Origin: Candidatus Adlerbacteria bacterium
GTDB taxonomy: Bacteria; Patescibacteriota; Minisyncoccia; Phycocordibacterales; SBAW01
DNA: 64,000 nt
Direction: 5' to 3'
Assembly (NCBI GenBank): GCA_029288895.1
Contig: JARIGK010000004.1
Coordinates: 175,866-239,865 of the forward strand
Shown here: piece after piece, positions 12,019 to 56,143 of the stretch
Layout: every line of letters starts with the position of its first letter
How positions within the stretch are numbered: the stretch's first letter is position 1
Notes under the pieces: model-generated
The model's database searches: none
What the model was told of the DNA's origin: nothing
What the model saw: the letters and a program-made list of their open reading frames with translations, nothing else
Program-made: the position numbers and the translations under genes

Positions 12019-12336
12019 ATGAAGATCTTTTCACTCGTCGCCGCAGTTGCGGCAATTTCTGTACCAGCATTCGCCCAAAGCCATCGTTTTGATCCTGGTG
12101 GCAAAGTGGTCGACGCCCGGGCGGCAATGCGTTGTGGAGTGCCGCCGGATTTTGGCGAAGAACTCCACGGCAGCTTCTTCAGCTGTGGAGGAAGGCTTAT
12201 TTTTGTCCGCAATGCGTATTTGCTGGGCATCATAAAAGCCGATGATATTTTCCTCTGCGAAGTCGGCATTAATGCTGCTGGCGGGGAAGTCGCTGAGAAC
12301 TGCAGGCGGGAACGTACCGTCGCCACAAAAAAGTGA
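12019..12336 (+). CDS. Hypothetical small secreted protein
   Basis: Strong Shine-Dalgarno GGGAGGAAGTAATG, signal-peptide-like N-terminus MKIFSLVAAVAAISVPAFAQ, terminator hairpin right after the stop. Competes with an antisense ORF 11973..12359. Confidence 0.4.
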   Translation: MKIFSLVAAVAAISVPAFAQSHRFDPGGKVVDARAAMRCGVPPDFGEELHGSFFSCGGRLIFVRNAYLLGIIKADDIFLCEVGINAAGGEVAENCRRERTVATKK

Positions 12337-12345
12337 CCAATGAGA

Positions 12346-12377
12346 GGCCGCCCCAGCATAGGGCGGTCTTTTTCTTT
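12346..12377 (+). terminator. Rho-independent terminator
   Basis: GGCCGCCC-cagcata-GGGCGGTC followed by TTTTTCTTT. Confidence 0.5.
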
Positions 12378-12443
12378 ATGCAGGTATTAGATGAAGAACC
12401 CAGTTGCCGGGAGGGCAGAGAAAGGTACAATAGGAAAGTTGTT

Positions 12444-13124
12444 ATGATCTATTTCGACAGAGTCAGCAAGGTCTACGCTGACAACTCAATCGCATTGGAA
12501 GATGTTAGCTTCTCCGTTGAACCGGGCGAATTCATCTCCATCGTCGGCCACTCGGGTGCCGGCAAAACCACCCTCGTCAAAATGCTCTTAGCAGAAGAGA
12601 AGCCAACAGACGGCTCCGTCTTTTTTGAATCTATTAATGTGCACGAGGTGCCTTTGTCGCGCATCAACCACCTGCGCCGCAAGATAGGCACCGTCTTCCA
12701 AGACTTCCGCCTTCTTCCGCAAAAGACCGCGTACGAAAATATTGCATTCGCGATGGAGGCAGCAGGCCGCCACGAAGAGGAGATCCATTCCGATGTGCCG
12801 CACGTGCTCGACCTGGTTGACCTCACAGATAAAGCAAATAATTTTCCTGACGAACTTTCAGGCGGCGAACAGCAGCGTGTGGCTATCGCGCGCGCTATTG
12901 TCAATCAGCCTGACGTCATTATTGCCGACGAGCCCACAGGTAACTTGGACCCGGTCAACACCTTTGAAGTGGTGCAGATCCTCAAGAAAATCAATGACCT
13001 AGGCACTACTATTATCCTCACCACGCACAACAAAGGCGTTATCGACAGCTTAAAGAAGCGCGTTATTACTATGGACCGCGGCCGCATCGTCCGCGACGAC
13101 CGAGAAGGGAAATATATATTGTAA
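12444..13124 (+). CDS. ftsE: Cell division ATP-binding protein FtsE
   Basis: Walker A GHSGAGKTT, ABC signature LSGGEQQRVAIARA, Walker B IIADEPTGNLD; ~226 aa from the first ATG. Confidence 0.9.
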   Translation: MIYFDRVSKVYADNSIALEDVSFSVEPGEFISIVGHSGAGKTTLVKMLLAEEKPTDGSVFFESINVHEVPLSRINHLRRKIGTVFQDFRLLPQKTAYENIAFAMEAAGRHEEEIHSDVPHVLDLVDLTDKANNFPDELSGGEQQRVAIARAIVNQPDVIIADEPTGNLDPVNTFEVVQILKKINDLGTTIILTTHNKGVIDSLKKRVITMDRGRIVRDDREGKYIL

Positions 13125-13133
13125 AATTTGCCT

Positions 13134-14066
13134 ATGAACTGGACTACCGTTAAACGAATATTCCGCTCCGGCCTCCTCGATTTTTGGAGAAACGGGTTCG
13201 TCTCACTCGCATCAATTTTGGTGATGACGGTAACGCTGTTTGTCGTAGGTATGACGCTCTTTGCGGGCGTTATTTTGCAAACGGCATTGAATGATTTGCG
13301 CGATAAAGCGGACGTGAGCGTGTACTTCACGACCAATGCACCCGAAGACAAAATATTGGAATTGCAGAAGTCGGTAAATGCGCTGCCGCAAGTTGAAAGT
13401 ACGCAGTATGTGTCGGCCGACGACGCGCTCGCGAACTTCCGCGAACGCCACCAGAACGACCAGCTTACCCTGCAAGCACTCCAAGAACTTGGCGCAAACC
13501 CGCTCGGCGCTGTGCTTAACATCAAAGCAAAAGATATTTCGCAGTACGACGCTATCGCGCAGTTTTTGGAACAGCAGCAGGCACTGTCCACGGGCAACGC
13601 AAGTATCATCGACAAGATTAACTACTTCGACGCGCAGCACCGCCAGGCGCTTGAGCGTCTGCAGAGCATCACCGACTCGGCAGGGACGCTTGGCCTCGTG
13701 ATTATCCTTATCTTGGTTGCGGTCACGATTGCTATTTCATTTAACACGCTGCGTTTGGCAATTTACACCTCGCGCGAAGAGATCCAGGTGATGCGCTTGG
13801 TGGGGGCGGGCTCGTTCTATATCCGTGCACCGTTTATGGTGGAGGGCGTGCTGTACGGCCTCATTTCGGGGCTCGTGACATTGATCCTCTTCTACCCGCT
13901 GACATACTGGTTGGGGAGCGCAACGGCCGACTTCTTTGGCGGCATCAACGTCTTCTCGTACTACGTATCGCACTTCCTTCAATTCTTCGCTATTATAGTC
14001 GGGACGGGCGTTGTGCTTGGGGCGGCAGCCAGCTACCTGGCGGTGCGCCGATATTTGAAGATTTAA
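13134..14066 (+). CDS. ftsX: Cell division permease-like protein FtsX
   Basis: Follows ftsE by 9 nt; 4-TM FtsX topology with a large extracytoplasmic loop; first ATG at 13134 (the ORF track starts at TTG 13128). Confidence 0.85.
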   Translation: MNWTTVKRIFRSGLLDFWRNGFVSLASILVMTVTLFVVGMTLFAGVILQTALNDLRDKADVSVYFTTNAPEDKILELQKSVNALPQVESTQYVSADDALANFRERHQNDQLTLQALQELGANPLGAVLNIKAKDISQYDAIAQFLEQQQALSTGNASIIDKINYFDAQHRQALERLQSITDSAGTLGLVIILILVAVTIAISFNTLRLAIYTSREEIQVMRLVGAGSFYIRAPFMVEGVLYGLISGLVTLILFYPLTYWLGSATADFFGGINVFSYYVSHFLQFFAIIVGTGVVLGAAASYLAVRRYLKI

Positions 14067-14074
14067 ATTGCTAG

Positions 14075-15739
14075 ATGAAATTTCCTTTTTCTAAATCCGA
14101 AAGCTCGAGCGAGAATCCAAAATATATTTTCGTCGTCGGCGGTGTGATGTCGGGCGTTGGCAAAGGCGTCGCGTCATCATCCATCGGCAAAATTTTGAAA
14201 GCAAAGGGGTTTAAGGTCACCGCGATTAAAATCGACCCCTACATCAACGTGGACGCTGGCACCATGAACCCGACAGAACACGGCGAAGTGTTCGTGTTGG
14301 ACGATGGCTACGAGACCGACCAGGATATGGGTAACTACGAGCGCTTTTTGGATGAGTCGCTGCCGCAGATTAACTACATGACCACCGGCCGCGTGTACCA
14401 GGAAATAATCCGCCGCGAGCGCAATTTGGAGTATGGTGGCAAAAACGTGGAAGTGGTACCGGACGTGCCACTCGAAGTAATTCGCCGCATCAAGCGCGCG
14501 CAAGAAGAAGCGAAGGCAGACATTACGCTTGTGGAAGTGGGCGGCACGATAGGCGAGTACCAGAACATCATCTTCCTCGAAGCGGCGCGTATGCTCAAAC
14601 AAAAGCATCCAAAAGATGTGGCCGTCGTGATGGTGTCGTATGTACCCATTCCGGGCAACATCGGCGAGATGAAGACCAAGCCGACGCAGTATGCGGCGCG
14701 CTCGCTGAACTCTGTCGGCCTCCAGGCGGATGTGATTTTGGCACGCGCACAAGTAGCGCTCGACGAAAAGCGCAAAGAAAAAATCGCTATCTTCTGCAAC
14801 ATCCCGACCGAGCATGTGATTTCGGCACCCGATGTCCAGAGTATTTATGATGTGCCAGGTAATTACGAAGAAGACGGCCTAGGCGACATTTTGACGGACG
14901 TCCTTTCCTTGCCAAAGAAAAAGACAGACCTTTCGGAGTGGAATACGTTTGTACAAAAATCAAAGAAGGCAACACAAGAAGTTGAGATAGCAGTTGTGGG
15001 CAAATACTTCTCATCGGGAGAGTTCGTGCTTTCGGACGTATATATTTCGGTGCTCGAGGCAATCAAGACTGCGGCGTACCACCTCGACCTCAAACCAAAA
15101 ATTACGTACCTGTCGTCGCAGGATTTTGAATCAGGAAAAATGGAATTGTCCGAGCTCGATCGCTTTGGCGGCATCTTGGTGCCGGGCGGCTTTGGCTCAA
15201 CAGGCGTCGAGGGCAAAATAAAAGTGATCCAGTACGCACGTGAGAAGAAGATCCCATATTTTGGCATTTGCTATGGCATGCAGTTGGCGGTGATTGAGTA
15301 TGCGCGCCATGTTGCAGGTATGAAAGATGCACACACACGGGAAATTTCCAAAGACACCGCGCACCCAGTGATCGACATTATGGAATCGCAGAAAGATATT
15401 GTTGAGCAGGGGAACTTTGGCGGCACGATGCGGTTGGGTACGTACCCATGCGTCATCAGAGAGGGGACCGTGGCACACACAGTCTTTGGCACAACAGAAA
15501 TTTCCGAGCGCCACCGCCACCGCTACGAAGTAAACACCGACTATATCGAAGAGATAGAAAAAGCGGGCATGGTCTTTTCGGGCAAGTCACCAAACGGCGT
15601 ACTCATGGAAATCGTTGAGCTTCCGAAAGATGTGCACCCGTTCTTTATGGGTATCCAGTCGCACCCCGAATTCCTCTCGCGCCCACTTACTCCGCACCCG
15701 ATCTTCTCGGCGTTTATAAAGGCCGCAAGCAAAAAATAA
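14075..15739 (+). CDS. pyrG: CTP synthase
   Basis: 554 aa; N-terminal synthetase domain (KYIFVVGGVMSGVGKG) and C-terminal GATase with catalytic Cys (GICYGMQ). Confidence 0.95.
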   Translation: MKFPFSKSESSSENPKYIFVVGGVMSGVGKGVASSSIGKILKAKGFKVTAIKIDPYINVDAGTMNPTEHGEVFVLDDGYETDQDMGNYERFLDESLPQINYMTTGRVYQEIIRRERNLEYGGKNVEVVPDVPLEVIRRIKRAQEEAKADITLVEVGGTIGEYQNIIFLEAARMLKQKHPKDVAVVMVSYVPIPGNIGEMKTKPTQYAARSLNSVGLQADVILARAQVALDEKRKEKIAIFCNIPTEHVISAPDVQSIYDVPGNYEEDGLGDILTDVLSLPKKKTDLSEWNTFVQKSKKATQEVEIAVVGKYFSSGEFVLSDVYISVLEAIKTAAYHLDLKPKITYLSSQDFESGKMELSELDRFGGILVPGGFGSTGVEGKIKVIQYAREKKIPYFGICYGMQLAVIEYARHVAGMKDAHTREISKDTAHPVIDIMESQKDIVEQGNFGGTMRLGTYPCVIREGTVAHTVFGTTEISERHRHRYEVNTDYIEEIEKAGMVFSGKSPNGVLMEIVELPKDVHPFFMGIQSHPEFLSRPLTPHPIFSAFIKAASKK

Positions 15740-15782: not shown

Positions 15783-15853
15783 TGCCAGATCGTCTAATGG
15801 TAGGACAACGGACTCTGAATCCGTTTATCTTGGTTCGAATCCAAGTCTGGCAG
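15783..15853 (+). tRNA. tRNA-Gln (CTG)
   Basis: U1-A72 acceptor TGCCAGA/TCTGGCA, anticodon stem ACGGA/TCCGT with loop CTCTGAA, T-arm CTTGGTTCGAATCCAAG. Confidence 0.8.
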
Positions 15854-15919
15854 CAGCTTAGTTTAGTATCGGACGACCAAGAGGGGTCAGGAGCTAACAA
15901 CTAATGTACTATTCCTAGT

Positions 15920-16516
15920 ATGGAATATAAATTTGTACTTGGCACTCTTGCGGCGCTTTTTGCCATAGGTAGCGCATATCTCTATATTCGGGATATATTC
16001 CGCGGTAATACAAAACCTCATACCTACACATGGATTATATGGTCCATTGTTACCGCCATTGGGTTTCTTGGACAATGGTATACCGGTGGAGGAGCAGGCT
16101 CATGGGCCACAGGGGTGACAGCTTGTTACTGTTTCATCATTCTGTTTCTTTGCTTCAAATATGGAACAAGCGATATTACGAAGTTTGATCTACTGTGTTT
16201 GGTTCTGGCAATTACCTCTATTGTCCCGTGGCTCTTCTCCCACAATATTTTGTGGTCTGTAATTTTAGCAACAATAACTGATCTACTTGGCTTTCTTCCT
16301 ACAATACGAAAAACATGGCGCGCTCCGCGTAGTGAATCACTCGGGTCACTCTGGTTCGACGTTTTTAAACACGGGCTTTCTGTTGCGTCACTTCAAACGT
16401 ATTCACTTACTACATGGTTGTATCCAGCCGCTATTATCATTGCAAAGATGATGCAGGTGGTCGAAATATCGTATTTACGGTTTCTACGAAAGGAACATAA
16501 GGCGGCTCAAGTATAA
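15920..16516 (+). CDS. Multi-TM membrane protein, paralog 2
   Basis: YLYIRDIFRGNTKPHTYTW..., FDLLCLVLAITSIVPW, LPTIRKTWRAP motifs shared with 7710..8306; AT-richer than its neighbours. Confidence 0.55.
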   Translation: MEYKFVLGTLAALFAIGSAYLYIRDIFRGNTKPHTYTWIIWSIVTAIGFLGQWYTGGGAGSWATGVTACYCFIILFLCFKYGTSDITKFDLLCLVLAITSIVPWLFSHNILWSVILATITDLLGFLPTIRKTWRAPRSESLGSLWFDVFKHGLSVASLQTYSLTTWLYPAAIIIAKMMQVVEISYLRFLRKEHKAAQV

Positions 16517-16524
16517 TTATCTAT

Positions 16525-17151
16525 ATGAGCGAAGTATTTTTGGGTTTACCGATTGCACACTGGCTCGTCCTTCTTTCCATCGGCATCAGTTCAACAGGAG
16601 GCATAACCTACCTCCTCAACATGTTTCGAGGAAAATCCAAACCCAACTTGGTTTCGTGGGGTCTGTGGGGCTTGGCCCCACTTATTGCAACAGGAGCGGC
16701 TATTTCGGCTCATGCCGATTTGTGGGGCACTGCACGTGTTTTTATTTCTGGTTTTGTACCGTTCGTTATTTTTATGTTCGGTCTGTTTTTGAAGCAAAGT
16801 TACTGGAAACTCACTCGCTTCGACTTCTTCTGTGGAGTACTTTCCGTAATTGCTCTAATTGCATGGCTTATTGCTCATGCTCCCGTTGCGGCAATTTTGT
16901 TCGCGATAGCTGCAGACTTGTTTGCCTCAGTGCCGACTCTAGTAAAAGGATGGCAAAGCCCTCATACCGAAACGGCAACCGTTTTTCTTACAAGCCTCAT
17001 ATCATCTCTCATCACAATCCCTGCTATCCCAGTTTGGAATCTTGAAAACACCGCATTTCAAGCGTATCTGATTATTGTAAATCTGGCTTTGTTTGGAGTC
17101 ATAACTTTAGGTAAACTCCTAAAGCCAACACAAAGTGTTTCGACTCAATAG
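16525..17151 (+). CDS. Multi-TM membrane protein, paralog 3 (tandem with paralog 2)
   Basis: LNMFRGKSKPNLVSWGLW, FDFFCGVLSVIALIAW, VPTLVKGWQSPHTE motifs. Confidence 0.55.
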   Translation: MSEVFLGLPIAHWLVLLSIGISSTGGITYLLNMFRGKSKPNLVSWGLWGLAPLIATGAAISAHADLWGTARVFISGFVPFVIFMFGLFLKQSYWKLTRFDFFCGVLSVIALIAWLIAHAPVAAILFAIAADLFASVPTLVKGWQSPHTETATVFLTSLISSLITIPAIPVWNLENTAFQAYLIIVNLALFGVITLGKLLKPTQSVSTQ

Positions 17152-17239
17152 TTCCGAACCCATCTAACCATTGCAGCCAGTAAAATTTTTGCAGTGAAAT
17201 AAGGATATTTTGGATAGGATGATTGGATGATCAGAACTG
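17150..17239 (+). repeat. Intergenic repeat element A, copy 1 (supplies the start codon of the downstream gene)
   Basis: AGTTCCGAACCCATCTAACCATTGCAGCCAGTAAAATTTTTGCAGTGAAATAAGGATATTTTGGATAGGATGATTGGATGATCAGAACTG; near-identical copies at 18314, 19177 and a partial copy at 17738. Confidence 0.75.
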
Positions 17240-17685
17240 CTATACTTCCTGTAATGGAAAAGAGAATACCGGCACTTACGCCAGAGTTAAAAATCACTGA
17301 CTTTAAGAAGAGTCTAAAATTTTATACTACACTCGCTGGTTTTGATATTGAGTACGAACGTCCTGAAGACGAATTCGCAATGCTCAGCAAAGGAGATGCA
17401 TGGATTATGATTGAATCCATTAGCGATAAAAGTCGCATAATGAAAGCAGGGGCTCTCGAGTATCCTTTTGGGCGCGGCATGCATTTTCAGATACAGGTTG
17501 AAGATGTGCAGTCGCTCTACGATACTTTTAAAAGCAATTCTCATCCTATCTTCTCCGAAATGGAAGATAAGTGGTATCGAACAGGCGAGACCGAGGGAGG
17601 GAATAGGCAATTTTGGGTACAAGACCCTGACGGCTACATGCTGCGCTTCTATCAGGACTTAGGTTCTAGGCCTTTTCAGAAGTAG
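17227..17685 (+). CDS. VOC-family protein (glyoxalase / bleomycin-resistance-like)
   Basis: 152 aa with beta-alpha-beta-beta-beta-like modules (KITDFKKSLKFYTTLAGFDI..., WVQDPDGYMLRF); start codon lies inside repeat A copy 1. Confidence 0.6.
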   Translation: MIRTAILPVMEKRIPALTPELKITDFKKSLKFYTTLAGFDIEYERPEDEFAMLSKGDAWIMIESISDKSRIMKAGALEYPFGRGMHFQIQVEDVQSLYDTFKSNSHPIFSEMEDKWYRTGETEGGNRQFWVQDPDGYMLRFYQDLGSRPFQK

Positions 17686-17691
17686 CAGTCC

Positions 17692-17765
17692 AGTTCCGAA
17701 CGACACTAAAATAATCAGTATGGATTTGTATCAAATTGATTCCGAACCCATCTAACCATTGCAGC
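17692..17765 (+). repeat. Repeat element A, truncated copy 2: an isolated AGTTCCGAAC half, then ...TTCCGAACCCATCTAACCATTGCAGC fused to the next gene start
   Basis: AGTTCCGAAC at 17692-17701 directly after the VOC stop; the first 26 bp of element A at 17740-17765 are followed immediately by ATG 17767. Confidence 0.6.
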
Positions 17766-17766
17766 A

Positions 17767-18288
17767 ATGAAAAAGATTTATATAACGGGAGTTTCAGGGA
17801 CAGGAAAAACTACCATTGCACATGAATTAGAAAAGAGGGGCTACCTTGTTGTGAGTATTGATGAGGTGTCAGGGCTGTGCTCATGGACGCATCAAGAGAC
17901 AGGAGAAAAACATGGCGGCAAAGATACGCCCCTCACTAAAGAATTTGTTGATGCCCATGATTGGATTGTAGATATCGAACACTTGAATAAACTTCTCGAT
18001 AAAGATGTCGAAGTGGCGTTTGTACTAGGTATGGCTGGTAATCAGAATGAGTTCTTGCCATCATTCGATAAAATCTTATTGCTAGAATGTAACCCCGAAA
18101 CCTTCAGTGCGAGAATTGACGCACGAACAGACAATGATTTTGGTAAAGACCCACAAATCAAAGCTCAAATTCTCAACCGCTATAAAACTTACGGGGAAGA
18201 GATGCGTTCGCGAGGTGCTATTGTTGTAAATACCGATAGGCCTATTGATGCGGTGGTCAAAGATGTTATTGCTCAAGCCAATGCATAA
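17767..18288 (+). CDS. P-loop NTPase, small kinase-like (adenylate/shikimate-kinase fold)
   Basis: Walker A ITGVSGTGKTTIAHEL at the extreme N-terminus; 173 aa. Confidence 0.6.
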   Translation: MKKIYITGVSGTGKTTIAHELEKRGYLVVSIDEVSGLCSWTHQETGEKHGGKDTPLTKEFVDAHDWIVDIEHLNKLLDKDVEVAFVLGMAGNQNEFLPSFDKILLLECNPETFSARIDARTDNDFGKDPQIKAQILNRYKTYGEEMRSRGAIVVNTDRPIDAVVKDVIAQANA

Positions 18289-29565: not shown

Positions 29566-29569
29566 AAAA

Positions 29570-29590
29570 CACAGCCCAGAAAGGGCTGTG
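29570..29590. terminator. Rho-independent terminator for the minus-strand 29605..29997 gene; hairpin also follows the plus-strand 28417..29565 gene (no T-run on that side)
   Basis: CACAGCCC-agaaa-GGGCTGTG with an A-run upstream, which is a T-run for the minus-strand gene. Confidence 0.6.
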
Positions 29591-29604
29591 AGGGTGCCGA
29601 AGAA

Positions 29605-29997
29605 TTATTTCTGTGGTGCGGTGGCGCGCCAGTAATGGCCATGTTCCGACAAGTGCACTATTTTTAGTGTTTGTGCGGCGGGGCCAATGAAGATCTCGAC
29701 CGTATGCTCTGGGTTGATATAGACCTGCGCTCCTTCCTCTGATGTTCGGATCCGTGACACGAGTTTGCACCCGATCTCGTCGTCCGAATAGAGTGCCATA
29801 GCCATGTCCACGTCGATATATGTCGCATTCACAGGGTCCTGCGCGACGCCTCCATTTTTTATCGTAAGGGCAGCGCGATGCGTATCGCGCCCTTGGAGAG
29901 AGTCGCACTGGAATTTTCCTGATTCAGGAATTCCCCAGTACATGAGTGCAAGAACCGAGCCGCTAACGCCAGCTATCTGCGCAAGTGTGCCAAACAT
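29605..29997 (-). CDS. Hypothetical protein
   Basis: ORF on the minus strand; start chosen at the ATG with a GGGGG Shine-Dalgarno (MFGTLAQIAG...). The longer ORF-track version to 30138 would overlap the helicase gene. Confidence 0.4.
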   Translation of the reverse strand: MFGTLAQIAGVSGSVLALMYWGIPESGKFQCDSLQGRDTHRAALTIKNGGVAQDPVNATYIDVDMAMALYSDDEIGCKLVSRIRTSEEGAQVYINPEHTVEIFIGPAAQTLKIVHLSEHGHYWRATAPQK

Positions 29998-30116
29998 ACA
30001 TAACCCCCGATTGGAAAGAACAACTCTACAATTCTGCACTCGTGCTCCCAAAGGTGGCATGAAGAGAATATGGCCACATTTGACAAAATCATTGCAATAT
30101 ATTATTATTGTTGGCA

Positions 30117-31418
30117 ATGCCAGAACGCAGTCATACAAAGCCGTTTAGCGGCCGCCGTTTCGGAAAGAAGCCTGGAAACAGGGCTTTTTCGACATCGCGT
30201 CCGTCGTACGGTGGAAGCCGCCCTTCATTTGGCGGTGGTCGCCCGCAGTTTAAGAAGCGCCCATTTTCAGGTGGCGCTAAGGGTGGCTCTCGCGGCGGTT
30301 TCAAAGGAGGTTCCTTCTTTGACCTTTCGCAATTCGTAAACAAAGCGGTCATCACCGAAGAAGTTGAGAAGTTTATCCCCGAACACAAGTTTACCGATTT
30401 CCACATCGAACCGCGTTTGAAAGACGCAATTGTGTCGAAGGGCTATATCGCGCCGACCCCAATTCAGGATCGCGCTATTCCGCATGTGTTGATGGGCCAG
30501 GATGTCGTGGGTATTGCAAACACGGGTACCGGCAAGACAGCAACATTCCTCATCCCGCTCATCAATAAAATTTTGAAAAATAAAAACGAGCGTGTGCTCG
30601 TGATGGTGCCGACGCGCGAACTTGCGGTGCAAATAGGCGACGAACTTCGCGGCTTTACGCCAGGCCTCGGTATCTACTCGGCCATTTGCGTGGGTGGTGC
30701 AAGCATCGGCCCGCAGATTTCGCAGCTCCGCCGCCGCCCCAACTTTGTTATTGGTACTCCTGGCCGCCTCAAAGATTTGCTCGAGCGCCGTGCACTCAAC
30801 CTTTCTGACTTTGGCACCGCAGTCTTGGACGAAGCAGACCGCATGCTCGACATGGGCTTCATTAATGATATGAAGACTATTCTCGCACTTTTGCCGAGCC
30901 CTCGCCATACGCTCTTCTTCTCGGCGACGTTGTCGAAAGAAATCGAAAATCTCATTGGCCAGTTCTTGAAAGAACCGGTCCGTATCTCCGTCAAAACACG
31001 AGAGACCTCGGCCTCAATCGACCAGGACGTTGTCCGCGTACCGAAGGGTGGCGATAAGCTCACTGTGCTCCACGACCTGCTTCTTAAGCCTGGGTTTGAA
31101 AAGGTGCTTATCTTCGGCCGCACCAAACACGGCGTCGAGAAGCTTTCCAAGATGCTTGTACAGCGCGGATTTAAATCAGAATCGATCCACGGCAATAAAA
31201 CCCAAAATGCACGCCAGCGCGCACTTGATGGGTTCAAAAAAGGCCACACTAACATTTTGGTTGCGACAGACGTTGCAGCCCGTGGGTTGGATATCTCGGG
31301 TGTTTCTCACGTCATCAACTACGACTTGCCAGCGTCGCGCGAAGACTACGTCCACCGCATCGGCCGCACGGGTCGTGCAGGCAAGCGCGGTATGGCGCTC
31401 ACCTTTATCGAGGCGTAA
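30117..31418 (+). CDS. DEAD-box ATP-dependent RNA helicase with an N-terminal Arg/Gly-rich extension
   Basis: Q-motif, Walker A (ANTGTGKT), DEAD (VLDEADRML), SAT, HRIGRTGR. ~75-aa N-terminal low-complexity RGG/FGG region (SRPSYGGSRPSFGGGRPQFKK...GGSRGGFKGG). Confidence 0.85.
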   Translation: MPERSHTKPFSGRRFGKKPGNRAFSTSRPSYGGSRPSFGGGRPQFKKRPFSGGAKGGSRGGFKGGSFFDLSQFVNKAVITEEVEKFIPEHKFTDFHIEPRLKDAIVSKGYIAPTPIQDRAIPHVLMGQDVVGIANTGTGKTATFLIPLINKILKNKNERVLVMVPTRELAVQIGDELRGFTPGLGIYSAICVGGASIGPQISQLRRRPNFVIGTPGRLKDLLERRALNLSDFGTAVLDEADRMLDMGFINDMKTILALLPSPRHTLFFSATLSKEIENLIGQFLKEPVRISVKTRETSASIDQDVVRVPKGGDKLTVLHDLLLKPGFEKVLIFGRTKHGVEKLSKMLVQRGFKSESIHGNKTQNARQRALDGFKKGHTNILVATDVAARGLDISGVSHVINYDLPASREDYVHRIGRTGRAGKRGMALTFIEA

Positions 31419-31448: not shown

Positions 31449-31739
31449 ATGAAAAACACGAAAGTAAAACCTAAAATTGTAAAAGCTACGAAAGTAGTAA
31501 AGAAGGGGAGCATTGTTAAAAAAGCTCTCATGGCTAAGCCGTTGGCAGGTGAGCCGATGCGCCCCAACGCGCAGCTCCAGGGCCCGCACAAAACTTTCCA
31601 GCAAGACGGCCACTGGATCGAAAAGCCAAACAAGACGCAGATCCTTATCTGCACCTGCGGCAACCGCTACTTGAAGACCCGCCCTCGCCAAGAAAAGTGC
31701 CTCCGCTGCGTCTCCGCAACCCTCACCATCCGCCGCTAA
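31449..31739 (+). CDS. Small Lys-rich protein with a C4 zinc-ribbon
   Basis: KVKPKIVKATKVVKKGSIVKK N-terminus and CTCGN...CLRC; 30 nt downstream of the helicase; terminator follows. Confidence 0.5.
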   Translation: MKNTKVKPKIVKATKVVKKGSIVKKALMAKPLAGEPMRPNAQLQGPHKTFQQDGHWIEKPNKTQILICTCGNRYLKTRPRQEKCLRCVSATLTIRR

Positions 31740-31740
31740 A

Positions 31741-31770
31741 ACTCCCCTTCTCGGGGAGTTTTTGTTTTGT
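31741..31770 (+). terminator. Rho-independent terminator
   Basis: ACTCCCC-ttctc-GGGGAGT + TTTTTGTTTTG. Confidence 0.7.
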
Positions 31771-31851
31771 CGAGGACGGTCCTCGACATTCGCAATTTTT
31801 GAAGTGTCTGGTATTGTCTCAAACAGATTTCTTTTAGATAGGGAGACAGCA

Positions 31852-32679
31852 ATGGGTAGAGTCTTTTCGTGGCCTGATATTGAAGCGGGCCAGATTCCAA
31901 AAATTACTGATTTTCCGGTGGTTGTTCGACATATACGGAAGGTCATTGAAGCCGAAGATTCAATCGCAGGAGCCCTTCTTTGTGGTTCCGTACTGCGCGG
32001 TGATCACAATTGCCGAAGCGACATCGACTGTGTCGTGATCTATAACACTAAGTCTGAGCGCAGGGCTATGGAAGTGCTGCAGGGCATAACCGAGTTTGCA
32101 TCAAAGCGGTACGTGCCTGTTGGGTTTGTCCCGTGTGACTCGTCTACGGTGCTGACGAGGTTCCACCATTTGGGCCCTGCATTCTGTATCCATTTGCAGA
32201 CAGCGATACAGAATGGCGGTGTCATTAGCGCGAACCCTCTTGATCTTTTAGGTGAAGAAGGCGGCGATATGATTTCAGAGGTTGAGTGGTACCTTCGAAC
32301 TAAGCTTTATCGTCTCCAAGAGGGCCTCGCAAAATATCCTTCCATGTCGATGGAACGGAAGTGCGGGTTCTTGCAAAAATCGCTTGAAGCTCCGTCACAT
32401 GTAGCCCGTAAAATGCTTCACTTGTTCGACAAGGACAAGAATGATTCAAAGAAGGCCATCGTCGACAGATACTGTGCCGTTATGCCGCATGAACTTGGTC
32501 AACGTCTTGTGTTTCTAACCTCGACTGATGCGGACTATACAAGACGGCTGCGTGAGCAACTCAAGCATCCTGATAGGGAACAGTATCAAGATGCATGGGA
32601 GATCATCGAACAAACCCCTTACTGGGCGCTTAACTTCCTTCGGGAAAGTATTGTTCAAGTAAACAAGCTTCGCGCGTAA
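31852..32679 (+). CDS. Nucleotidyltransferase (Pol-beta superfamily) domain protein with a helical C-terminal domain
   Basis: GS-x10-DIDxV motif (LLCGSVLRGDHNCRSDIDCVVIY); ~276 aa from ATG 31852; visibly lower GC than its flanks. Confidence 0.55.
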   Translation: MGRVFSWPDIEAGQIPKITDFPVVVRHIRKVIEAEDSIAGALLCGSVLRGDHNCRSDIDCVVIYNTKSERRAMEVLQGITEFASKRYVPVGFVPCDSSTVLTRFHHLGPAFCIHLQTAIQNGGVISANPLDLLGEEGGDMISEVEWYLRTKLYRLQEGLAKYPSMSMERKCGFLQKSLEAPSHVARKMLHLFDKDKNDSKKAIVDRYCAVMPHELGQRLVFLTSTDADYTRRLREQLKHPDREQYQDAWEIIEQTPYWALNFLRESIVQVNKLRA

Positions 32680-32761
32680 TGTGCGGGGCTTTTTCTTTTC
32701 CACAGTCCCGCTTGCATTATTTTACCTAGTACCTTAGTATAAAAAGGTACTGAATTTAGAT

Positions 32762-33100
32762 ATGGCAGAAGACACCGACAAAGATGTATTTAGCCCGCTT
32801 CGCAAAGGCTTGCTTGAGCTCGTTGTACTCAAGGTAATTTCTGCGCGCCGCGCATACGCTGCTGATATTTTGGCGCGCTTGGCAGAGACCGAATTTGCGA
32901 CACAAGAAGGGACGCTGTATCCGCTGCTGTCGAAGCTGCGCCGCGACGGGGCCGTCGACTATGAATGGGTCGAATCGGAACAAGGCCCGCCGCGCAAATA
33001 TTATTCTCTGACGGCAAAAGGCAAAGAGAGGGCAGACGAATTGGACACCTATTGGAAGACATTACACGAAACAATTATCAAACTTAGTAAAAAAGCATGA
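32762..33100 (+). CDS. PadR-family transcriptional regulator
   Basis: Winged HTH with conserved GTLYPLLSKLRRDGAV...KYYSLT; 112 aa. Confidence 0.8.
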   Translation: MAEDTDKDVFSPLRKGLLELVVLKVISARRAYAADILARLAETEFATQEGTLYPLLSKLRRDGAVDYEWVESEQGPPRKYYSLTAKGKERADELDTYWKTLHETIIKLSKKA

Positions 33101-34014
33101 ACAAGGTTGTAACAGTTAACTTAAATGGGCGCTCGTACGAGTTCGAGGAAGGCGCATACGATGCATTGCGCCGCTACTTGGATGCTGCCGAACATAAGCT
33201 CGCCGATAACCCCGACAAGCAGGAAATCCTGTCCGACTTGGAGCAGGCTATTGCTGAAAAGTGCGACCTCTACCGAACTCCGCACAAAAACGTAATCATT
33301 GGGGCTGATATGGACGCAGTGCTCAAACAGATGGGCGATGTTGATGGCGAGCAGGGTGAGCATGCGTCGCACGAAGGCGCGCATACTGGTACGCACACGC
33401 CGCGCCGCTTGTACCGCCTGCACGAGGGCCGTGTCTTCCTTGGCGTTTGTTCTGGGTTGGCTGCGTATTTTAATGTCGACGTCACACTCATCCGCGTGTT
33501 GTTTGTGATCTTGGCATTTATCACGCACGGCGGGTTTGCGTTTGGGTATGTGCTCATCGGTATCTTTATCCCTGAAGCCGACACGCCCGAGCAAAAAGCG
33601 CAGGCCTATGGCGCAGCATCAGTCACCGCAAACGACCTCATCAACCGCGCACACAAAACATACGAAGATTTTAAAAACAGCCGCGATTGGCATAAAGCGA
33701 CTCATGACGCTCATGAAATTCGCAAACAAGCCGCTGAGCACGCAAAAGAATGGAAGCAGATGTGGAAGGCAGAGCGCCGCAAACAGCGCCGCCAACACCG
33801 CGCCTATTCGTACAACTATCAATACCGCATGTCGCCCATGTGGGAGGCAGTGCACTCAATAATCGGGATGGCGTGGTTCCTCCTTATTGTGTATGTGGGC
33901 TGGCTGCTCTATACCCATGTGCCTGCAGCACACCATGATATCGACGTCATAGCAGCATGGCTCCACGGTTTGTTGCTCCATATAGGGTCGTGGGTCGCCG
34001 CGCGTATCCACTAG
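33097..34014 (+). CDS. PspC-domain membrane protein
   Basis: RLYRLHEGRVFLGVCSGLAAYFNVDVTLIRVLFVI = PspC domain; 4-nt overlap with padR. Confidence 0.7.
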   Translation: MNKVVTVNLNGRSYEFEEGAYDALRRYLDAAEHKLADNPDKQEILSDLEQAIAEKCDLYRTPHKNVIIGADMDAVLKQMGDVDGEQGEHASHEGAHTGTHTPRRLYRLHEGRVFLGVCSGLAAYFNVDVTLIRVLFVILAFITHGGFAFGYVLIGIFIPEADTPEQKAQAYGAASVTANDLINRAHKTYEDFKNSRDWHKATHDAHEIRKQAAEHAKEWKQMWKAERRKQRRQHRAYSYNYQYRMSPMWEAVHSIIGMAWFLLIVYVGWLLYTHVPAAHHDIDVIAAWLHGLLLHIGSWVAARIH

Positions 34015-55570: not shown

Positions 55571-55660
55571 GGAGGCGTCGCATAGTGGTCTAGTGCACCG
55601 CCTTGGAAAGGCGGCATCGGGGAAACCTGATCGAGAGTTCGAATCTCTCCGCCTCCGCCA
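55571..55660 (+). tRNA. tRNA-Ser (GGA), long variable arm, CCA encoded
   Basis: GGAGGCG/CGCCTCC acceptor, anticodon stem CCGCC/GGCGG with loop TTGGAAA, variable arm ~18 nt, T-arm GAGAGTTCGAATCTCTC. Confidence 0.8.
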
Positions 55661-55687: not shown

Positions 55688-56143
55688 ATGGGGCGTACTA
55701 CAATAGTATTTATGGCCACTATCAACGTACATATCAACTTTAATGGAAATGCAGAAGAAGCATTCAATTTTTATAAGTCAGTATTTGGCGGAGAATTTTC
55801 AAAAATTAGCCGTTTCAAGGATTTAGCAAGTGCTGACTTTACACCGGCACCGGAGGAAGGGAATAAAATAATGGTTATCGAGTTGCCTATTGGTAACAAT
55901 ATATTGAGCGCAAACGATGTCCCACAGCATTTGGGGCGTACAAACGAACACGAAAACAGAAGCAAGATTGCAGTTGCTGCAGAGAGCCGCGAAGAAGCAG
56001 AAACGCTATTCAACGGGCTTTCAGTTGGGGGAGAAGTAGAAATGCCGCTTGGCGATAGCCCTTGGGGGACCTACTTCGCAATGTTCCGAGATAGGTACGG
56101 CATCGAATGGATGATTGAGTTTGATTCAAAAAATATAGATTAA
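55688..56143 (+). CDS. VOC-family protein (PhnB / glyoxalase-like)
   Basis: INVHINFNGNAEEAFNFYKSVFGG...PWGTYFAMFRDRYGIEWMI typical of PhnB-like VOC proteins; strongly AT-rich. Confidence 0.6.
   Translation: MGRTTIVFMATINVHINFNGNAEEAFNFYKSVFGGEFSKISRFKDLASADFTPAPEEGNKIMVIELPIGNNILSANDVPQHLGRTNEHENRSKIAVAAESREEAETLFNGLSVGGEVEMPLGDSPWGTYFAMFRDRYGIEWMIEFDSKNID

Follow-up and report, generated by a model that had tools for sequence, protein, structure and literature searches.

Two well-studied enzymes are the reference points for what follows. AadA, an ANT(3'')(9) nucleotidyltransferase (NTase), binds two Mg ions and the phosphates of ATP through S36, S46, D47 and D49; its helical domain contributes R192, K205 and Y231 to the binding of those phosphates, and the catalytic base is E87 (PMC6065190). 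When E87 is changed to glutamine (E87Q), adenylation is lost and only ATP hydrolysis remains (PMC6065190). The substrate determinants of AadA are Trp112, Asp182 and His/Asn185 (PMC6065190). In KNTase, or ANT(4'), the alpha-phosphate is touched by two helical-domain residues, Glu145 and Lys149; Glu145 has been proposed as the base, and Glu76, on strand beta3, has no clear role (PMC4631478). Here we describe a gene whose predicted product resembles these enzymes in fold. It lies in a 64,000-nucleotide stretch of DNA (‘the window’) from a Candidatus Adlerbacteria bacterium (GenBank contig JARIGK010000004.1, positions 175,866 to 239,865), at window positions 31852–32679 on the + strand, and encodes an NTase of 275 amino acids (aa).

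We propose, at a probability of roughly 0.45, that this two-domain protein is a nucleoside monophosphate (NMP) transferase of the ANT/KNTase structural class that acts on a small-molecule acceptor, with its general base relocated, and that its gene is a single-gene insertion without a link to the genes that flank it. The structural class of the protein and the accessory status of the gene, taken by themselves, we hold to be highly probable. The family to which the protein belongs is an uncharacterised one, seen here only in metagenome-assembled genomes (MAGs) of the ultra-small Patescibacteria, and the gene itself is intact, solitary, fast-evolving and accessory.

The NTase core is readily recognised. 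Residues 26–96 match two Pfam models of the Pol-beta superfamily above their cut-offs, NTP_transf_2 (PF01909; 31.2 bits, cut-off 21) and Polbeta (PF18765; 27.5 bits, cut-off 26.9), and 14 of 15 family members match both. The motif GS-x10-DIDxV, from which the initial annotation had assigned the protein to this superfamily, is present as G45-S46-x10-D57-I-D59-C-V, and the assignment holds. The C-terminal 180 residues match nothing in Pfam, NCBIfam or PADLOC, and in the same three collections no ANT, Lnu, KNTase_C, DUF4111, HEPN, SMODS, CBASS or HalB model scores above threshold. Phmmer and profile searches of Protein Data Bank (PDB) sequences match the N-terminal minimal nucleotidyltransferase (MNT) core only, and the PDB profile matches of the family are MNT proteins. 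Beneath the thresholds, the MntA model matches 14 of the 15 members (best 7.7e-7; 20 bits for the window protein, where the cut-off is 60), and the ANT_9 and AadA hidden Markov models match one to three of them (best 2.3e-4).

The whole chain was modelled with AlphaFold2 (AF2) from the family alignment (mean predicted local distance difference test, pLDDT, 94.1; predicted template modelling score, pTM, 0.88). Residues 1–125 constitute a minimal NTase (Pol-beta) domain, with beta1 at 38–44, a short helix at 46–49, beta2 at 58–64, a helix at 66–84 and beta3 at 90–96. Residues ~129–275 constitute a HEPN-fold helical bundle (helices across ~129–274, pLDDT 94); the helical C-terminal domain that had been expected is thus borne out by the model. 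As modelled, the two domains would face each other across a cleft, as they do in ANT(3'')(9) and ANT(9). When the AF2 model was compared with solved structures by Foldseek, AAD(9), AadA and LinB ranked first, LinB as a weak match (E 7.5e-4; template modelling score, TM, 0.33). Overall, the closest solved structures are those of ANT(3'')(9) and ANT(9), with LinB, HalB and ANT(4') lower in the lists; one list continues with DrrA (10.1), HalB (9.8) and GlnE (8.5). CdnE and CdnC are poor structural matches (TM 0.25–0.28, probability 0.3–0.5).

The likeness to antibiotic NTases that was first suggested survives, then, at the level of fold, but not in the form proposed: the nearest structures are ANT(3'')(9) and ANT(9) rather than ANT(6), and no curated ANT or Lnu threshold is reached. 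Membership in ANT(6) or Lnu had been put forward specifically, and neither Pfam Adenyl_transf (PF04439) nor the Lnu and ANT(6) models of NCBIfam give a match at E<=1.

Residue conservation was counted over 156 family representatives. Fourteen positions are at least 90% conserved (P16, G45, S46, R55, S56, D57, D59, H114, Y147, K151, R186, Y229, Y245 and F262), and five more are conserved at 79–89% (H105, K187, D198, K200 and D226). The two signature elements of the fold, hG[GS] (G45-S46) and, on beta2, [DE]h[DE]h (D57-I-D59), are kept in 152–155 of the 156. The conserved residues of the helical domain are E143, Y147, K151, E179, R186, K187, D198, K200, D226, Y229 and Y245; three of these, E/D143 (86–94%), Y147 and K151, form a stripe along its first helix. 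The triad [DE]h[DE]h...[DE] is, however, incomplete. Strand beta3 reads V-G91-F, with glycine where the third carboxylate of the h[DE]h motif would stand; the equivalence of residue 91 with AadA E87 is by topology, not by superposition. The two closest relatives of the window protein have glycine there as well. Of the 156, 45% carry E at position 91, 16% N, 11% Q and 6% G, with A or S also occurring; E or D together account for about half. Whether or not residue 91 is acidic, members retain the other conserved residues at the same 90–99% level, so the family does not depend on residue 91. E/D143 is found in 94% and 86% of the two groups, respectively. No compensating acidic position is specific to the members without E91; position 51 is mildly enriched (67% versus 35%).

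The mechanism that we envisage is as follows. Mg-NTP would bind in the cleft between the NTase domain and the helical bundle, its metal and phosphates held by G45-S46, S56, D57 and D59 in the manner of AadA S36, S46, D47 and D49, and its triphosphate clamped by K151, R186, K187, K200 and Y229 of the helical domain. The NMP would then pass to a hydroxyl of an acceptor lodged in the same cleft; the likeliest acceptors are small molecules, for example an antibiotic or a toxin produced by the host or by neighbours. Since Gly91 stands in place of the beta3 carboxylate, which the family as a whole can do without, the general base would probably come from the helical domain (E/D143), as proposed for KNTase Glu145/Lys149. 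It is from the E143-Y147-K151 stripe, together with that precedent, that we infer that the base has moved as in KNTase.

How close, then, is the protein to its nearest described relatives? ANT(3'')(9) and ANT(9) enzymes (AadA and AAD(9); PDB 7uy4, 5g4a and 6sxj) are of similar size (~260–275 aa) and likewise join an NTase domain to an up-down helical bundle. They too are encoded by stand-alone accessory genes. The metal/phosphate motif S..S-D-x-D has the same spacing as in AadA, with S46, S56, D57 and D59 of the window protein aligning with AadA S36, S46, D47 and D49, and the conserved Arg, Lys and Tyr of the helical domain could act as AadA R192, K205 and Y231 do. The spacing-based pairing of R186, K200 and Y229 with these three residues is tentative, the forced extension of the hhalign alignment, itself unreliable, disagreeing with it. 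The differences are substantial. Identity is 11–13%, and the curated models ANT_9, ANT_3pp_I and PRK13746 give no match at E<=1 for the window protein. The base E87 is replaced by Gly91; W112, D182 and H185 are not recognisable; and the isoelectric point (pI) is neutral (7.1, with a family median of 6.6) where that of AadA is acidic (4.6 for aadA1). The family also has a conserved N-terminus of its own (MGxVFxWE..P), is restricted to Patescibacteria, and was not found among plasmids.

KNTase (PDB 1kny and 6un8) is of the same two-domain class and is in the Foldseek list, and its helical-domain Glu145/Lys149 and its beta3 Glu76 of no clear role parallel the E143-Y147-K151 stripe and variable residue 91 described above. 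It differs in that the structural match is weaker (TM ~0.40–0.43), no Pfam KNTase_C match is obtained, and the active site of KNTase, an obligate dimer, is composite. The type VII toxin–antitoxin system MntA–HepT shares the MNT-type motif of the N-domain, GSxxRGxxxxRSDIDhhV, and the presence of a HEPN fold. Here, however, both domains are fused in one chain rather than encoded by a two-gene operon, and the Rx4-6H RNase motif is lacking: the C-domain reads EAPxHxARK, with no conserved His 4–6 residues after R186.

The gene and its surroundings comprise the following features, given by window position:

30108–31418, + strand: DEAD-box RNA helicase, first gene of a conserved helicase/zinc-ribbon pair (Pfam DEAD 1e-47, Helicase_C 2e-34).
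31449–31739, + strand: 96-aa Lys-rich protein with a CxC-x13-CxxC zinc knuckle, companion of the helicase (45 homologues).
31738–31762, + strand: hairpin like that of an intrinsic terminator, 10-bp stem, T tract to ~31770, closing the helicase/zinc-ribbon unit.
31764–32692, + strand: single-gene segment of ~930 bp, absent from the same site in comparison locus L027 (alignment of both junctions with L027 6210–6410).
31769–31787, no strand: GTCGAGGAC-G-GTCCTCGAC, a perfect 9-bp palindrome bordering the insert on its left and unique in the window.
31852–32679, + strand: coding sequence (CDS) of the NTase, 275 aa (Pfam, family alignment, AF2 model and structure matches).
32665–32691, + strand: terminator-like hairpin belonging to the NTase gene, overlapping its stop codon and followed by TTTTTCTTTT.
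32727–32750, no strand: palindrome AGTACCTT-N8-AAGGTACT upstream of the PadR gene, conserved in L027.
32762–34014, + strand: PadR regulator (32762–33100) and PspC-domain membrane protein (33097–34014) (Pfam PadR 1e-18, PspC 6e-18; synteny).

The genes thus form four co-oriented units: the helicase, the 96-aa basic protein, the NTase, and PadR overlapping the PspC gene. The mechanically called open reading frame (ORF) of the NTase runs from 31762 to 32679, beginning at a TTG; the true start is the ATG at 31852. An AGGGAG resembling a ribosome-binding site lies 8 nt upstream of that ATG, and some 90% of the 156 representatives begin with MG at its position. The gene of ~276 aa first reported is therefore real, at a length of 275. 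A terminator had been reported ahead of it, and this is confirmed and mapped to 31738–31762: a hairpin, AAAACTCCCC-TTCTC-GGGGAGTTTT, with a T tract, directly 3' of the stop codon of the 96-aa gene. The NTase gene thus has a terminator-like hairpin on each side and is separated from the first by a 112-bp spacer. An Rfam scan of the window finds tRNAs only; in it, neither a riboswitch nor a leader precedes the NTase gene. The palindrome at 31769–31787, for which the chance expectation is 0 matches in the window, may be an operator or a recombination site.

That the NTase gene is an addition to this locus emerges from comparison with relatives: L027 (contig DASZSF010000005.1), L028/L029 (Adlerbacteria) and L032/L033. 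All three keep the surrounding block at 70–93% protein identity (ClpP-like, KGG, a 380-aa protein, the DEAD helicase, the zinc-ribbon protein, and, further on, DUF5652, LexA and DUF218), and none has the NTase. In L027 the order is zinc-ribbon, PadR, PspC, MliC; in L028/L029 and L032/L033, MliC directly follows the zinc-ribbon gene. Aligned with L027 at the DNA level, the window-specific segment (~31764–32692) lies within the T tract of the terminator, which is ancestral, since L027 carries the same one. Ancestral sequence picks up again to the right of the insert at TCCACA..GCTTGCATTATT..AGTACCTTA, a resumption marked by the palindrome upstream of PadR. Both junctions read GGGG[A/C](G)TTTTT. 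These terminator tails, and an 11-nt repeat, TTTAGATA[G/T]GG, that precedes the starts of both the NTase and PadR genes, are the only repeats near the window copy, and both could be chance. In our reading the gene arrived as a ~930-bp insertion into the T tract of the helicase/zinc-ribbon terminator.

Horizontal acquisition had been proposed partly on grounds of composition. Accessory status is upheld by synteny, the gene being absent from the same site in close relatives, but composition lends it no support. The NTase CDS has 48.8% G+C (GC) and 50.0% GC at third codon positions (GC3); over the window's 71 long ORFs the corresponding means are 51.6% (standard deviation, sd, 3.6) and 55.5% (sd 7.2), and z is about -0.8 on both measures. 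The drop to which attention had been drawn is thus small and marginal. The window does have true low-GC islands, but in other places: 15920–18288 (42–45% GC) and 55688–56143 (42%), each of which directly follows a tRNA gene.

The PadR–PspC pair is itself variable: the window and L027 have it, L028/L029 and L032/L033 lack it, from which it follows that the site after the zinc-ribbon terminator is a recurrent hotspot for insertion. Since L027 has both genes without the NTase, PadR and PspC are not its partners. The palindrome upstream of PadR lies ~12 nt before the start codon, has its counterpart at L027 6349–6372, and is probably an autoregulatory operator for PadR.

Family size depends greatly on the method of search. 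A word-indexed search of 5.8 billion proteins returned only 15 relatives; an exhaustive profile search raised this to 924 cluster representatives (E<=1e-3), with 304 passing E<=1e-30. Almost all are 270–280 aa long and align from residue 1. In GTDB species genomes we located 26 NTase loci, mostly in MAGs labelled as lineages of Patescibacteria (Paceibacterota, Giovannoni-, Kaiser-, Jorgensen-, Sung-, Lloyd-, Morani- and Buchananbacteria, plus MAGs labelled Saccharibacteria); five binchicken MAGs among the 26 are labelled Gammaproteobacteria or Bdellovibrionales. No neighbour gene recurs across the 26 loci; among the 93 flanking proteins, any one Pfam family is represented at most twice. In two MAGs the homologue is split into two ORFs (L022, 10001–10850; L026, 9908–10550). 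These may be frameshifts or pseudogenes, consistent with a dispensable gene, or assembly errors. A tRNA gene lies within 1 kb at 6–7 of the 26 loci, against an expected ~13% (binomial P ~0.11), a hint that falls short of significance. Nothing relevant to the family was found in the literature.

One further relative, L030, has the NTase at a different genomic place. Its FtsE, FtsX and CTP synthase are 94%, 83% and 86% identical to those encoded at 12333–15739 of the window; its NTase homologue (1930–2757) is 59% identical and begins 229 bp after a tRNA-Gln(ctg) gene. Copies of the T-arm of this tRNA bracket the homologue, a 15-nt perfect direct copy at 1844–1858 and a 17-nt perfect reverse-complement copy at 2787–2803, and a further partial copy of the tRNA 3' end lies at 2852–2878. 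Inverted arms of 28 nt, at 1843–1870 and 2777–2804, enclose the gene. Judged by sequence, the T-arm copies within 1630–2880 suggest scars of site-specific integration or inversion. A class-A beta-lactamase-like gene lies 2 kb from the L030 NTase.

The same tRNA-Gln neighbourhood that houses the homologue in L030 is occupied in the window by other genes. There, tRNA-Gln(ctg) (15783–15854) is followed, up to 18288, by a low-GC island (42–45% versus 52%) of four ORFs: two without a Pfam match, one with a glyoxalase/bleomycin-resistance fold (17227–17685), and one like an AAA_18 kinase (17767–18288). The whole, 15783–18288, looks like an integrated island. The second low-GC accessory gene of the window that adjoins a tRNA is an ORF of 42% GC at 55688–56143, of the glyoxalase / 3-dmu-9_3-mt family, which follows tRNA-Ser(gga) (55571–55660).

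Three points count in favour of a small-molecule acceptor: the ranking of whole-chain fold matches, the solitary accessory behaviour of the gene, and its occurrence in variable regions with genes of resistance type, namely the beta-lactamase-like gene of L030 and the glyoxalase/bleomycin-resistance-fold genes in the window islands. Others weigh against it. The acceptor is a prediction, no member of the family is characterised, and no curated ANT or Lnu model is passed. The near-neutral pI is atypical for an enzyme that binds polycationic aminoglycosides. Under an AadA-type mechanism Gly91 would abolish adenylation, as the inactivity of AadA E87Q implies (PMC6065190). Alignment of the family with AadA by hhalign (15, then 156 sequences) has a probability of 23–59% and is confident over the GS..DxD core only, which leaves the pairing of helical-domain residues tentative; the AadA determinants E87, W112, D182 and H185 (His/Asn185) are not recognisably conserved in this alignment, which is unreliable over the C-domain. 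As to insertion, we found no terminal repeats, recombinase or other hallmarks of mobile elements flanking the window copy, and no relatives in viral contigs or in the phage and plasmid collections searched.

A near-neutral pI suits a protein or RNA acceptor better than it does an aminoglycoside, and the enzyme might instead transfer NMP to a macromolecule, AMPylating a protein (maybe itself, at Y147, Y229 or Y245) or tailing RNA. MntA AMPylates HepT, and DrrA and GlnE AMPylate their targets. The N-domain is nearest in sequence to minimal NTases of the MNT type, and the three tyrosines are more than 90% conserved. Yet no conserved target gene adjoins the NTase in the 26 loci, and the HEPN Rx4-6H motif, with its adjacent tyrosine that MntA modifies, is replaced by EAPxHxARK; we consider a macromolecular acceptor doubtful. 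Gly91 admits another interpretation, that the protein is a pseudo-NTase, a sensor or regulator that binds NTP without catalysis or merely hydrolyses it, having lost the third carboxylate. Only about half of the 156 representatives are acidic at this position, and AadA E87Q provides a model for hydrolysis of ATP without adenylation (PMC6065190). Members that lack the acidic residue nonetheless keep their other active-site residues, which argues for retained chemistry with the base elsewhere, and a base outside beta3 has its precedent in KNTase. This makes a pseudo-enzyme decidedly unlikely.

The idea that the protein is a CD-NTase was raised at the outset and has fared poorly. An anti-phage signalling NTase, whether CD-NTase/CBASS-like or Hailong HalB-like, would make a cyclic or linear oligonucleotide, and the patchy distribution, rapid evolution and variable setting of the gene would suit such a role. 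There are weak sub-threshold matches, too, to SMODS, to HalB and to the PADLOC candidates PDC-S09 and PDC-M05A (1.5e-5, N-domain only). But the scores fall far short of their cut-offs (HalB, 13.4 bits against 190; CBASS cyclase, 12.4 against 200; SMODS, 12.8 against 26.5), and the cage-like architecture of these enzymes is not matched (TM 0.28 for CdnE). The effector genes that the initial annotation had suggested seeking among the neighbours are not there: none of the 26 loci has an effector, HalA, a channel or any recurrent partner, and the PspC protein next to the window copy belongs to the PadR–PspC pair found in L027, where the NTase is absent. For want of a partner gene this explanation is largely refuted, and we think it very improbable. 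A housekeeping NTase of the lineage, conserved in synteny and typical in GC, is barely credible. GC and GC3 are indeed ordinary, within one sd of the window genes, and the family is widespread in Patescibacteria, but conserved synteny was not found at the 26 loci. The gene is missing from the syntenic site in three close relatives and lies elsewhere in a fourth, copies are split at L022 and L026, and the L030 homologue is 59% identical where FtsE, FtsX and CTP synthase of the same locus are 83–94% identical.

The gene on the upstream side of the NTase deserves attention for other reasons. A 96-aa, Lys-rich, C4 zinc-ribbon protein in the same orientation as the helicase had been noted there and is confirmed at 31449–31739 (23 Lys plus Arg; pI 10.6). 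Its 45 homologues are 55–90% identical, with a variable Lys-rich tail; the core, invariably KTFQxxGxWIEKP..CxCGxRYLKTR..Q..CxxC, is 60–90% identical, and 21 homologues all keep C68, C70, C84 and C87. The protein has no significant match in Pfam, NCBIfam, PDB or Foldseek. Its AF2 model is of low confidence (pLDDT 65), with the N-terminal 55 residues disordered and a beta-hairpin and helix at 60–96. In five of six independent contexts, including genomes without the NTase, the gene directly follows the DEAD helicase at a gap of 6–60 bp. It therefore belongs to the helicase unit, and the adjacency of the NTase is incidental; a functional link between the zinc-ribbon protein and the NTase is not supported. 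Loci with the gene include L027, L028, L032 and L036 (Paceibacteria), and the helicase is 74–89% identical to its orthologues in the first three. The zinc-ribbon protein is plausibly an RNA-binding cofactor of the helicase; it could also be a ribosome-associated protein. A zinc-knuckle protein that is conserved in Paceibacteria, lacks annotation and partners a DEAD-box helicase may equal the NTase in interest. Upstream of the helicase, 540 bp (29566–30107) hold no convincing + strand gene; L027 encodes a LUD_dom protein there, of which tblastn finds no remnant. A strong promoter-like TTGACA-17-TATTAT (11 of 12 positions) lies at 30080–30108, right at the annotated start of the helicase.

The NTase belongs to a new, uncharacterised family within a well-known kind of enzyme, and as such will not surprise the specialist. 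For annotation, the family should not be named as an ANT, Lnu or CD-NTase enzyme. A bolder version of our proposal, which we regard as speculative and on the unlikely side, is that the family constitutes an ANT-like resistance or detoxification class specific to Patescibacteria, in which the base has moved from beta3 to the helical domain, and which travels as a single-gene cassette into sites next to tRNA genes and terminators and protects these episymbionts against antibiotics that their hosts or neighbours produce. If the NTase does modify an antibiotic or toxin, the E, N, Q and G found at the beta3 position would form a natural series for how Pol-beta NTases dispense with the third carboxylate. 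The family would also be a resistance-type class of enzyme confined to the Candidate Phyla Radiation, organisms whose chemical interactions with their hosts are, to our knowledge, almost unknown.

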